DNA of 64,000 nucleotides, from NCBI GenBank assembly GCA_045589455.1, contig JAZNPC010000060.1:1506-65505 (forward strand). The letters are read 5' to 3'. This DNA comes from Kiritimatiellia bacterium (GTDB taxonomy: Bacteria; Verrucomicrobiota; Kiritimatiellia; RFP12; UBA3636). This document shows positions 59,295 through 63,530 of this stretch, piece by piece (the stretch's first letter is position 1; each line of letters starts with the position of its first letter). Position numbers and translations under genes: made by a program. Below the pieces are notes generated by a model. It made no database searches, was not told the DNA's origin, and saw only the letters and a program-made list of their open reading frames with translations.

Positions 59295-59975
59295 ATGAAG
59301 AAAATATCAATATTGTTTGCCGTAGCAATCGCTATGATAAGCACAGCTTCATTTGCAAAAACAAATCCACATAAAGGTGAAGCCATTTATGTTGAAGAGA
59401 TTATAGAAACCATGGTTCAAATTCCTGGTAAAGATTATCTTATGGGCAAATATGAGGTAACTCAAGCCCAATGGCAATCAATAATGGGTAACAATCCTTC
59501 ATATTTTACAGGCGATTCATCTCGTCCAGTAGAGTGTGTTTCATGGTATGATTGTCAAGAGTTTATTGAGAAGCTTAACGCTCGAGCAGAAGTAAAGCAA
59601 GCAGGCTTAACCTTCTTCCTACCAACAGAGGAGCAATGGGAGTATGCTTGCCGTGCAGGAGGCACAGGTAAGTATGGCTTACTTGCAGATGGGCGAGATG
59701 GCTCCCTTGATGAGATGGGGTGGTATAAATATAATTCAGGAGACGAAACGCATCCAGTAGGACAGAAGAAACCCAATGTATGGGGGTTATACGATATGCA
59801 TGGTAATGTGTGGGAGTGGACAGCGTCGGCAAATGGTTTTTTCCGTTTTAACCGTGGTGGTAGCTACTATCATGATGCGTCTGTCTGCGAGTCGGATTTC
59901 AGGAACTGGTTCAGTCCCGATTACAGGTGCAGCTACCTCGGCTTTCGCCTCGTCGCCTCTAGGACAGGTTATTAA
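59295..59975 (+). CDS. Secreted FGE-sulfatase (SUMF1 / C-type-lectin-fold) domain protein; candidate DGR variable protein
   Basis: Signal peptide, then YEVTQAQWQ, VSWYDCQEF, LPTEEQWEYACRAG, GLYDMHGNVWEWT and a C-terminal RGGSYYHDASVCESDFRNWFSPDYRCSYLGFRLV. Confidence 0.85.
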   Translation: MKKISILFAVAIAMISTASFAKTNPHKGEAIYVEEIIETMVQIPGKDYLMGKYEVTQAQWQSIMGNNPSYFTGDSSRPVECVSWYDCQEFIEKLNARAEVKQAGLTFFLPTEEQWEYACRAGGTGKYGLLADGRDGSLDEMGWYKYNSGDETHPVGQKKPNVWGLYDMHGNVWEWTASANGFFRFNRGGSYYHDASVCESDFRNWFSPDYRCSYLGFRLVASRTGY

Positions 59976-60336: not shown

Positions 60337-62724
60337 ATGAGAACAAATAAAAAAATACTATTGACAATATTGTCTGGATTTATATGCTTTGGACAAGTAT
60401 TTGGGCAAACAGATGAGCAAAAAGCAGCTGCGGAACGCCAAGCATTCTTCGATGAATATTGGAATGAATTAGCATCTAGAATAAACGAGCGTATAACATA
60501 TAAGGACAGAGAAGAATATTTACAGGCTGTAAAATCGCAACTATTGCATGACAATAATGATGGAACGGTTTTATTAGATGAATTTGCATCTGAATATTTG
60601 CCTAATACTTTTGCTAAATATGAAAAGGCACGTGAAAAGTCATTAGAGATTGGACAAAATCTTAAATCAGTCTTTACAAAACCATTAGATGATAATTCAC
60701 CAGAATGGCCTAGCTATATAAAGGCGACAGAAAAGTATTGTCAAATCCTTTGTGATGAAAAACGAATCCAGAATGGAATTTCATATATTTATTTATTCCA
60801 TAAGGTTGGAGCAATGAGTGATGATATGCTCGCTGAGCTTGATAAATCAGAAAAAATGAATTTTTGGTTTGAGATTGATTTTAAGCATGATTTAAATCAA
60901 TACCAAATAAAGAAAGTGGAAGGAGTTATGGAATTTGCGCAAAAGAATATGCCAGAAACCTTTGCTCTATTAGAAGCTTTTGAAAAAGAAATAAATGAAA
61001 CAAAAGTGCAGTTTGATGGAATATATGCAGAGGCAGAGAAGCAAAATTATTTCCTAGGAAATACAACACACCCAGTCTTTGTCGCATTTGAGTTTAAATA
61101 TAGAAAAACAATAGAAAAATATAATACCATAATGCAGCAAGTAAAGAATCTTCAGGTTGAGCATTTGCTTTTAGAAGTAACAGGAGATGATTTGGCTTCA
61201 CAAGATATCAAAATCGCTAAAGAGTATAAAGCCTTTAAAGATTCCTTACCAGAATTTGTAAAAACTAATGCACATAAGGGTGTAGCCTTATATGTTGAAG
61301 AGATTATAGAAACCATGGTTAAAATACCAGGAAAAGATTATCTTATGGGTAAATATGAGGTAACTCAAGCTCAGTGGCAATTAATTATGGGTGAAAATCC
61401 ATCGTATTTCAAAGGCGATTTATCTCGTCCTGTAGAGCAAGTTTCATGGAATGACTGTCAGAAGTTTATTGAGAAGCTAAATTCTTATTCCAATGAAGCT
61501 GGGTTAACCTTCTTCCTGCCAACCAAAGAGCAATGGGAGTATGCTTGCCGAGCAGGAAGCACAGGCGATTGGGGATTACTTGCTGATGGCTCAATGGGTA
61601 CACTTGATGCTATGGGCTGGTACGAAAATAATTCAGGACGCAAGACGCATCCAGTGGGGCAAAAGAAGCCAAATGCTTGGGGCTTATACGATATGCACGG
61701 CAATGTGGGGGAGTGGACTGCCTGGGAGTACCGCGACTATAACCCCATCTACTGTGGCGGTGGCTGGGATGATAGCGCTTGGTTTTGCAATACTGGCAGC
61801 GGGAGCTACAGCAACCGTGACCGCAAGTTAGACGGGGACGACGATCTCGGCTTCCGCCTCGCTGCTCGGCGTATAGTTGAATTAGTTATAAAAGCCAAGT
61901 GTGATGGAAAGTTTATTTCTGGTGAGGATTTAGTCCAATTAGGTGGCAAGCAATATGACATAGGAGAAGCTTTTGAAGTAATTGATGGAACTAACTATGG
62001 TGATGCAGAAATTAGATGCAACATAGGAGGAAAGAATTATTCAGGGCAAGTATCTATAGGCAAAGTTACGTGGAAAGGCACAAAGGAATTTGTCGTTGAC
62101 TTAAAAGAAATAAAAGAGCAACCAAGGATAACGGTAGCGGGCATAGAAATGGTACGCATACCAGATAATGCTACCCATAAAGACTTGTACTTTGGTAAAT
62201 ATGAGGTTACTCAGGCTCAATGGCAAGCAATAATGAGTAATAATCCTTCATGTCATGAAGGCGATTCATCTCGCCCAGTGGAGTTTGTTTCATGGTATGG
62301 TTGCCAAGAGTTTATTAAGGAGCTAAATGCTCGTGCGGATGTAAAGCAAGCAGGGATCACATTTAGATTGCCAACAGAGGAAGAGTGGGAGTATGCTTGC
62401 CGAGCAGGAAGCAAAGGCAAGTATGGCTTTCTTGCAGAAGGGCGAGAAGGTTCTCTATACGAGATGGGTTGGTATTGTGATAATTCAGGAGACGAAACGC
62501 ATCCAGTAGGACAGAAGAAGCCAAATGCATGGGGGTTATACGATATGCATGGCAATGTGTGGGAGTGGACTGCCTCAGCTTATGGTTCTGGCCGTTTTAA
62601 CAAAGGTGGTAGCTACTTTAATTTTGCGTCTTACTGCGAGTCGGATGAAAGGGGCTGGGACGATCCCGATGACGGGTACTACAACCTCGGCTTCCGCCTC
62701 GCTGCCTCTAGGACAGGAAAATAA
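60337..62724 (+). CDS. 795-aa secreted protein: unique alpha-helical N-terminal region, FGE domain A (aa ~318-512), a linker domain, and FGE domain B (aa ~598-795); candidate DGR variable protein
   Basis: Signal peptide. There are two complete FGE-sulfatase domains, each with ..YEVTQAQWQ.., ..EWEYACRAG.., ..GLYDMHGNV.EWT.. and ..LGFRLAA.. Domain A resembles the 59295 gene and domain B resembles the 30313 gene. Confidence 0.85.
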   Translation: MRTNKKILLTILSGFICFGQVFGQTDEQKAAAERQAFFDEYWNELASRINERITYKDREEYLQAVKSQLLHDNNDGTVLLDEFASEYLPNTFAKYEKAREKSLEIGQNLKSVFTKPLDDNSPEWPSYIKATEKYCQILCDEKRIQNGISYIYLFHKVGAMSDDMLAELDKSEKMNFWFEIDFKHDLNQYQIKKVEGVMEFAQKNMPETFALLEAFEKEINETKVQFDGIYAEAEKQNYFLGNTTHPVFVAFEFKYRKTIEKYNTIMQQVKNLQVEHLLLEVTGDDLASQDIKIAKEYKAFKDSLPEFVKTNAHKGVALYVEEIIETMVKIPGKDYLMGKYEVTQAQWQLIMGENPSYFKGDLSRPVEQVSWNDCQKFIEKLNSYSNEAGLTFFLPTKEQWEYACRAGSTGDWGLLADGSMGTLDAMGWYENNSGRKTHPVGQKKPNAWGLYDMHGNVGEWTAWEYRDYNPIYCGGGWDDSAWFCNTGSGSYSNRDRKLDGDDDLGFRLAARRIVELVIKAKCDGKFISGEDLVQLGGKQYDIGEAFEVIDGTNYGDAEIRCNIGGKNYSGQVSIGKVTWKGTKEFVVDLKEIKEQPRITVAGIEMVRIPDNATHKDLYFGKYEVTQAQWQAIMSNNPSCHEGDSSRPVEFVSWYGCQEFIKELNARADVKQAGITFRLPTEEEWEYACRAGSKGKYGFLAEGREGSLYEMGWYCDNSGDETHPVGQKKPNAWGLYDMHGNVWEWTASAYGSGRFNKGGSYFNFASYCESDERGWDDPDDGYYNLGFRLAASRTGK

Positions 62725-62838
62725 CTGTGCTAAAAGAAAAAAGGAGGCGTAGCAAGCGGTGCAAATAAAAAGCACCGCAAGCAAGCCTCCGAAAAATGTT
62801 TTTCAACCCGTTTTAAGGGTTGAAAAACCAAATTTTTT
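62723..62838 (+). repeat. Copy C of the double-hairpin 3' module (second hairpin is the terminator at 62799-62838)
   Basis: Same core as copies A and B. tttttcaaccc (62799-62809) / gggttgaaaaa (62817-62827) plus T6. Confidence 0.85.
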
Positions 62839-62983
62839 GATGACAATATGAGCCAATTTAAAATTTTCTTTGTCCCACATATAACCTGTTTCTAATCTAA
62901 TATTAGAACAAAAATCTGTTAACACATTGAGTTAGTATTCTTAGGAAGAAAACCCAATGTGTTTTTTTGTCGCTGACGCTCTG

Positions 62984-63530
62984 GCCTTCGGCGAAACGCG
63001 GAGAAAAAAGAGGCTCGGAGACACGGAGGTATTCTGGGGTAATTGTAGTGATTGCTTGCACAATTCTCCACGTCTCCGCGTCTCCGTGTTAAGCGTAAGC
63101 AATAAGTGCAACGATTAGCATAGTCCTCCTTTTCCTCCGTGAGAATCACACTTCGTGTGTCCGTGTTAGGCGAAAGCAATGAACGAAAGTGATTTAAACG
63201 CTCTTGCTCAAGCCTTCGGCGAAACACGGAGAATAAAGAGAACGGAGACACGGAGGGGTTTGGGGGTAATTGTAATGGTTGTTAGTATAGTTCTCCCTTG
63301 TCCTCCGTTCTCCGTGTTAGGCGTAAGCAATAAGTGTAACGATTTAAACGCTAACGCTTGAGCCTTCGGCGAAACACGGAGCACACGTAGTGTGGTTTTC
63401 AAGAGAACGGAGACACGGAGGGGTGCTTGGGATTGTTAGAATAATTGCTTGCACAATTCTCCTTTGTCCACCGTAAAAATCACACTATGTGTGTCCGTGT
63501 TGAGCGAAAGCAACGAGTGCGAAAAAGGGA
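62984..63530. repeat. Array of three 150-230-nt structured palindromic units (gccttcggcgaaacRcggag ... aacggagacacggagg ... cctccgtKctccgtgttaRgcg)
   Basis: Unit starts at 62984, 63212 and 63362. Each carries long-range complementary arms, e.g. 63374-63395 (aacacggagcacacgtagtgtg) vs 63481-63501 (cacactatgtgtgtccgtgtt). A fourth, truncated copy is at 1-60. Confidence 0.75.

Follow-up and report, generated by a model that had tools for sequence, protein, structure and literature searches.

A probable stranded variable region of retroelement type, made internal by gene fusion, in a lectin-fold protein of a Kiritimatiellia bacterium

The closest precedent for the case described here is found among the diversity-generating retroelements (DGRs) of Treponema denticola. 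According to the parts of Nimkulrat et al. (2016, PMC4891356) drawn on here, strains that carry neither the reverse transcriptase (RT) nor the template repeat (TR) retain "target genes" with variable regions (VRs), and in SP32 a remote VR fits a TR type other than the resident one. In the sections used of Wu et al. (2018, Nucleic Acids Research, PMC5758913), VRs are mostly C-terminal, the exceptions listed being one CLec2 target whose VR is internal and one CLec1 gene in which two of three VRs are internal; an internal initiation of mutagenic homing (IMH) element necessarily overlaps coding sequence. The present analysis concerns a block of 53 codons (61714-61872) in the middle of an open reading frame (ORF) of 795 aa, located in a 64,000-nt stretch of a Kiritimatiellia bacterium (assembly GCA_045589455.1, contig JAZNPC010000060.1). 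This whole stretch is called the window, positions are those of the window unless prefixed by a contig, and the genome is referred to as G000. We consider it probable that the block is a stranded and probably inactive VR of DGR type, belonging to a second type of block and internal through gene fusion.

The likeness to T. denticola, as far as the sections consulted of PMC4891356 describe it, lies in an FGE-type C-type-lectin fold, several dispersed targets and VR-type blocks without RT and TR, and SP32 provides the situation of a fossil from a different TR. In the same sections, the leftover VRs of T. denticola match TRs of sister strains with adenine-specific differences, whereas no TR is known in the genus studied here; those VRs are also C-terminal, whereas the block under study is internal through fusion and has lost its 3' end. 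As in the internal VRs of PMC5758913, a VR-type block lies within an ORF and more coding sequence comes after it. Those internal VRs, in the passages concerned, have a matching TR, are apparently mutagenised and hold the IMH in coding sequence, whereas the block described here has neither a TR nor a shared 3' element. Tandem FGE domains that each end in GGxW..C..GFRLA are also a feature of the multi-domain FGE-sulfatase (PF03781) proteins of Kiritimatiellae and Verrucomicrobia.

The 795-aa ORF (60337-62724) with its parts and the 3' module behind it, and the paralogs of 226 and 245 aa described below, lie on the forward strand. The N-terminal domain of the 795-aa protein (60337-61266) consists of a signal peptide-like start and about 300 aa without Pfam match, and is followed by the scaffold of a first FGE/C-type lectin (CLec) domain, domain A (61273-61713), and by the block, whose exact translation is WTAWEYRDYNPIYCGGGWDDSAWFCNTGSGSYSNRDRKLDGDDDLGFRLAARR, in accordance with the residues given in a first-pass annotation of the window. 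After the block come a linker of 86 aa (61873-62130) and a second FGE domain, domain B, with its scaffold (62131-62563) and another VR-like block (VR3, 62564-62712) at the true C-terminus of the protein. Pfam recognised two FGE-sulfatase stretches in the protein (PF03781, E 6.7e-53), in agreement with the first-pass annotation, which had placed the block in mid-ORF, with a linker of about 85 aa and a further FGE domain behind it. The Pfam match of domain A ends at profile position 197 of 255, ahead of the block, and 10 of the other 13 FGE matches of the genome extend to profile position 253-254.

A sharp change in composition marks the domain A block. Its G+C content is 0.604 and its A content 0.18, 43 of its 53 codons (81%) are NNY and 28 (0.53) are NNC, with G+C and NNC values of 0.43 and 0.14 in the domain A scaffold, 0.35 and 0.13 in the linker and 0.32 and 0.08 in the N-terminal part. 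When compared with a background of 943 windows of 53 codons taken from the long ORFs of the window, the G+C content of the block was reached once and its NNY share of 0.81 was never reached (maximum 0.79), so the compositional break is real and not due to chance. A low content of A together with many NNC and NNT codons is the composition expected for a VR of a DGR.

A comparison with the other FGE genes of G000 (96 contigs, 2.64 Mb, 94% complete, G+C 39.6%, shortest contig 1706 nt) has revealed 14 FGE matches and 13 recognisable end blocks. Nine of these blocks, here called written, show G+C 0.52-0.61, NNY 0.78-0.84, NNC 0.40-0.58 and third-position A 0-0.07, and the domain A block is grouped with them by composition; the other four (C57_2, C57_3, C85int and C85a) are ordinary, with G+C 0.33-0.38, NNC 0.02-0.12 and third-position A 0.33-0.42. 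Six written blocks form an ungapped type-1 set (GGSY) with 74-84% mutual identity. Three of them are in the window: VR3, VR2 in a 226-aa paralog (59295-59975) and VR1 in a 245-aa paralog (30313-31050). Pairwise differences in this set fall on codon positions 1-2 in 402 of 494 cases within the block and in 357 of 675 within the scaffold, a bias that is demonstrated for type 1 and was seen by eye for C85b against its ortholog in G002. The domain A block exceeds the type-1 blocks in length (49 versus 45 aa, counted from the T after GNVxEW to GFRLA), shares only 52-57% nucleotide identity with them over an alignment with 24 gap columns, and has unrelated variable positions.

The remaining three written blocks, the domain A block, C88 and C85b, have a fixed TGG at GGxW and NNC shares of 0.57-0.58, and make up type 2. 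In the genome the domain A block comes closest to the C-terminal ends of C88 (71% over 176 nt) and C85b (68%), and the type-2 members are each other's best matches; the second type is thus a genuine class, made up of three blocks. In this class the domain A block is an outlier, with a 9-nt insertion (R K L, 61822-61830), a 3-nt length difference and changes at template-fixed positions; the insertion is also absent from the frame of real FGE-type TRs, and two of its three codons are non-NNY. The excess of G+C and of NNC/NNT codons over the flanks (G+C 0.604 against 0.35-0.43), the greater length, the unrelated variable positions and the existence of a second type had all been proposed in the first-pass annotation, and each agrees with these results. 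The same annotation also relied on the frame GGxW...C...LGFRLA; the frame is present, but by itself it is no evidence for a VR, being common to FGE domains in general: 116 related proteins contain 301 blocks of this kind, 208 of which are internal.

Blocks of both types have been exchanged on nearly the same scaffold. The type-2 gene C88 (G000:C88:33239-34009) and the type-1 226-aa gene are identical in 347 of 360 nt of the scaffold (96%) and the match is lost exactly where the block begins; replacement thus involves whole blocks. The domain A block, with its VR-type composition, differs from the internal blocks of the other multi-FGE proteins of G000, C85int (C85:8143-10383) and C57_2 (a 1650-aa ORF of C57), which show ordinary AT-rich composition and may either have been stranded long ago or never have served as DGR targets.

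The internal position of the block is explained by gene fusion. From residue 516 to residue 741 the 795-aa protein shares 87% identity with residues 688-913 of P0087, a partial protein of 913 aa in which a Ser/Thr kinase domain is followed by a membrane segment, a long coiled region, a linker and an FGE domain. The homology begins at LVIKAK (61882), with only six residues (ARRIVE) between it and LGFRLA, and the beta-rich pre-domain that forms the linker from this point (61882-62130) is 91% identical to P0087 residues 688-778. The junction itself (61866-61881), which encodes part of ARRIVE, is unlike both P0087 and the 3' module of the other blocks. An ortholog search with the N-terminal 310 residues as query yielded seven proteins (P0020 and P0121-P0126), the set defined by the N-terminal domain. 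Five of them (P0121, P0122, P0123, P0125 and P0126; 512-532 aa) terminate five residues past the block, at ..LGFRLAASRTEK or a close variant, while the block is missing from the alignment of P0124. At the syntenic locus of G002 a single FGE gene follows pckG, and it is homologous to domain B only. The gene is thus a chimera, and the block formerly was the C-terminus of its 5' parent, because the P0087 homology starts at residue 516, the orthologs end after the block and the G002 locus holds domain B only.

Such fusions have occurred more than once. The seventh ortholog, P0020 (715 aa), reads through via ASRTG into the next FGE cassette, and similar read-through fusions, separate from the junction of the 795-aa protein, were found in G001:C24 and P0026. 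In P0087, the lectin head known from the 3' half of the 795-aa protein also forms the outer portion of what is putatively a sensor kinase. Among the other 30 of the 31 family genomes no match to the N-terminal domain exceeded 28% identity (24-28%), and only G000 holds it.

The fusion coincides with the absence of a 3' element that all the other written blocks share. Downstream of eight written blocks lie GCCTCTAGGACAG..TAA.CTGTGCTAAA and hairpins; the ninth, the domain A block, is the sole exception. After VR3 this 3' module (..ACAG..TAA.CTGTGCTAAA, 62713-62842) contains two strong hairpins. The z values after module-bearing blocks were -9.1 (62713-62842), -7.2 and -5.7, with none of 200 shuffles as good, and the DNA after the domain A block (61866-61995) is unstructured (z +0.9, 161 of 200 shuffles as good). 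The similarity of the domain A block to other blocks stops after ...CTCGGCTTCCGCCTCGCTGC (61865); it departs from the shared 3' end after GCTGC, keeping only the G+C-rich part, so that the IMH-like 3' end with a hairpin that characterises a VR was not found at this block. A BLAST search revealed no second copy of its own 3' end in the genome.

The sections of PMC5758913 and PMC4891356 that deal with Mtd of the Bordetella phage BPP-1 describe an IMH with a downstream hairpin, to which the G+C-rich 3' end and strong hairpin of the eight other written blocks can be compared; the domain A block differs in having the G+C-rich part (..CTCGGCTTCCGCCTCGCTGC) and no hairpin. The 3' module is on these grounds a putative homing signal. 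A copy of this hairpin/terminator module that is 93% identical to 62718-62838 is also found at 29179-29299, after a UDP-glucose dehydrogenase gene and with no FGE gene before it.

A structural model made with AlphaFold2, which includes the FGE/CLec domain A, reached a pLDDT of 86.9, with 74-92 over the block. Its best match in the PDB was TvpA (2Y3C; E 4e-17, TMq 0.73), a non-enzymatic protein that was also the top sequence match among solved structures (E 2.6e-22). The predicted fold is a TvpA-like, FGE-type C-type-lectin fold with the variable part at the C-terminal end of the domain.

The site of the block is hypervariable among orthologs at the protein level. When compared with the four closest orthologs, identity was 83-85% in the N-terminal domain and 79-84% in the scaffold, and only 23-39% in the block, with 3-11 gap columns. 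A variable block beside a conserved scaffold, as in VRs of DGRs, is therefore seen here at the protein level only. The ortholog indels point to several templates, to cassette exchange or to later mutation, and the lengthened tail of P0122 resembles the domain A block, a likeness that is suggestive only.

Within the genus, signs of both rewriting and stasis were found. The block of C85b differs heavily from its ortholog in G002, so the genus has seen rewriting in its past. Between G000 and G001 the block of C88 shows 2 differences, and G001 (L171, C35) and G002 (L167, C104) carry exactly the same type-1 block (100% identity) in a region of 1367 nt that is 97.3% identical. At the latter locus there has been no rewriting after the divergence of the two lineages, or after an exchange of the gene.

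Sequencing data were also considered. Matches to 24 sequencing runs were obtained, none of which held more than 0.30 of the words, and the assembled contigs of four runs belong to relatives about 85-95% alike that are broken in the FGE region, contigs being blind to variants within a sample. A 437-nt contig of X7 fits 61882-62166 only and its other 152 nt do not fit; if the usual strand convention holds, these 152 nt are on the block side and would match a P0087-type junction, which is a weak hint.

According to the reading that we favour, the block was originally the C-terminal variable region of a surface protein with a TvpA-like FGE/C-type-lectin fold. A DGR would have written it in the past by reverse transcription of an AAY-rich TR with A-to-N errors, replacing the last ~140 nt of the gene and leaving A-poor, NNC/NNT-rich DNA within an AT-rich gene. 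A later rearrangement would have joined the gene, just past ...LGFRLAA, to the linker and FGE tail of another gene, a tail whose counterpart in a relative is part of a Ser/Thr kinase (P0087). By this event the gene would have lost its stop codon together with the hairpin and the conserved 3' module, and for that reason the block would be stranded in a two-headed protein and probably no longer rewritten. Support for the DGR-type reading comes from real templates in other organisms (L011 and L078, described below), since these have the frame of the blocks in question.

A template and a reverse transcriptase were searched for by several methods. No RVT_1 match was found in G000 or in any of the five genus genomes, with matches in 13 of the 41 genomes searched overall (G000 included), and an RT profile built from the ORFs of 12 relatives gave a best E of 3.2 among 9767 ORFs. 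A scan of the genome for a 159-nt stretch with the same base or A at each position returned the block itself (159/159) and, as next best, a stretch with 121/159, so that a second TR with A-for-N differences, as considered in the first-pass annotation, was not found. BLAST of the block against the genome retrieved only other FGE gene ends (68-71%). None of the block pairs showed a one-sided A bias (domain A versus C88: 49 mismatches, 11 and 10 at A), and adenine-only differences to a TR, which define a VR, were not seen for any block of G000. A gap-joined two-anchor pattern of the block had no matches in the collection of contigs of the other genomes. In the five genus genomes no free-standing TR was detected, all 18 sites of the 3' motif being inside FGE ORFs.

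Only one of the 12 RT loci obtained from 41 genomes (G000 and 40 relatives) carries an FGE-type TR. In this locus (L011:1177-2574 of G035, from the same order and another family), the frame of a DGR-type RT continues into an Asn-rich FGE-type TR, ..RGGSWNNNARNCRSANRNNNWPDNRNNNIGFR.. (RVKRGGSWNNNARNCRSANRNNNWPDNRNNNIGFR..), with the same length as C85b. This TR was rejected as template of the G000 blocks, from which it differs at 31-39 of 88 non-A positions in six written blocks and at 56-58 in two ordinary ones, and BLAST of the 12 RT loci against the blocks gave no similarity. Three Avd-like four-helix genes of G000 (PF05635, E 4e-26 to 2e-12; G000:C73:17034-17964 and C35:13667-14089) have no adjoining RT or TR and are probably unrelated to any DGR.

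A metagenome scan with a 19-mer of the 3' end of the block produced at least 120 stretches, and the DNA of 80 loci with 81 matches was examined. A regular expression flagged eight of these 81 matches as FGE-like and missed two TR-like ones (L078 on the minus strand, and L084), and four of the flagged loci (L049, L068, L081 and L113) were judged by eye to be chance. Close relatives of this genome were not present among the matches examined. In L078 (4870-5520), an ORF of 1482 aa ends in a VR, and ~480 nt downstream lies an inverted TR whose adenines account for 32 mismatches; the two form a textbook DGR pair of an unrelated GC-rich organism, which has the 19-mer TCGGCTTCCGCCTCGCTGC in common with the window. 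Viral contigs had no match to a 30-mer and two to a 19-mer, both by chance, and a protein search for short fragments with the block or the linker gave 53 candidates, none of them significant.

Several observations weigh against a stranded VR of DGR type. Indels, which are present among the orthologs, are not a product of A-to-N mutagenesis by a DGR. The domain A block also differs from C88 and C85b by indels of +9 and +3 nt, by TGG>GGG and CCT>CGT and by third-position T/C changes, and these indels and changes at template-fixed positions mean that the C88/C85b template as it stands was not the source of the block. No TR has been found, so that DGR authorship is argued from signature and analogy alone, and the role of the 3' module in homing is taken from the BPP-1 and T. 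denticola passages of PMC5758913 and PMC4891356. Finally, the NNC share of the block (0.53-0.57, against 0.40-0.42 in type 1) shows no decay towards the 39.6% G+C of the genome, so that either the block was stranded not long ago or its renewal continues.

Some of these points are accommodated by an explanation without a retroelement, which we hold to be distinctly less probable: a fast-evolving ligand-binding loop shaped by selection and by cassette exchange through gene conversion or transfer, with C-ending codons from a GC-rich donor. The generic nature of the frame (301 blocks in 116 proteins, 208 internal), the ortholog indels, the exchange of blocks as units between C88 and the 226-aa gene (347/360 nt up to the block) and the failure to find either a TR or an RT all agree with it. 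In GC-rich relatives from the family the third codon position of the blocks is similarly rich in C (C 0.60-0.73), which makes a patch from a GC-rich donor a possible source. However, third-position T amounts to 0.24-0.44 in the written blocks and to 0.04-0.18 in these relatives, and the high NNT share, together with that of NNC and with almost no third-position A, is expected from AAY codons and fits AAY templates better than a GC-rich donor. The concentration of type-1 block differences on codon positions 1-2 (402/494, scaffold 357/675), the sharp composition change at the block edges, a frame and length equal to those of real TRs and the genome-like composition of the ordinary blocks C85int, C85a and C57 also stand against this explanation.

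The first-pass annotation had offered a choice between a fossil VR that stems from a different TR and an internal VR that is still active. The fossil option fits the composition, the second type, the C-terminal position in orthologs and the missing 3' module. The active option would call for an RT, and for a second TR that ends in an IMH-like element of its own, carried by a mobile element or by a short contig missed in assembly or binning; the two heads of the protein would then be diversified from two templates. This option agrees with the undecayed composition (NNC 0.53-0.57), with the hypervariable site among orthologs, with the internal VRs known from the sections used of PMC5758913 (a CLec1 gene with three VRs, two internal) and with a similarly lengthened block in P0122 (..SRDDSLGRGDDNLGF versus ..NRDRKLDGDDDLGF), which hints at continued diversification on a longer template. 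It is also compatible with a draft assembly that breaks at FGE repeats, two contigs, C54 and C68, ending inside FGE genes; a short RT-TR contig could be missing from G000 and indeed from all five draft genomes, which likewise tells against the stranded state. An active VR is nevertheless very improbable, given that no TR (best non-self 121/159) and, by two methods, no RT were detected (RVT_1 in none of the five genus genomes), that none of the 18 3'-motif sites of the genus is free of an FGE ORF, that the block has neither 3' module nor hairpin nor a second copy of its 3' end in the genome, that two other blocks are frozen between species, and that the 9-nt insertion has only one NNY codon out of three.

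The stranded block would be the leftover of a known process and not a new mechanism, since internal VRs and leftover VRs are each already known. This case adds the route, namely loss of the 3' module through fusion, and a second type of block in a genus whose five genomes have shown no DGR core. The case would show how a binding tip written by a retroelement ends inside a longer protein and loses its presumed homing signal by fusion with a neighbouring or foreign lectin module. For DGR biology it is an added example without a new principle. Composition alone separates the nine written from the four ordinary blocks, which offers a simple way to spot former DGR targets when RT and TR are missing, as is common in draft metagenome genomes.

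A broader and rather unlikely proposal is that the many-headed FGE-repeat surface proteins of gut Kiritimatiellae are built by serial fusion of DGR target cassettes. If true, each internal block would be a fossil VR that freezes one past specificity and drifts slowly to genome composition, C85int and C57 being old fossils and the domain A block the youngest. In a bolder form, the block would still be rewritten from a second, unassembled template, and one protein would have two independently diversified heads.

Two other features of the window have been recorded. The space 3' of the 795-aa gene is filled by GC-rich dispersed intergenic repeats (..GCCTTCGGCGAAACRCGGAG.., CGGAGACACGGAGG..), which occupy positions 4-52 and 62955-63520. 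Elsewhere, an ORF of 507 aa (38208-39731) contains direct repeats of ~165-207 nt, 61-73% alike, and of 45 nt, located at 39037-39661.

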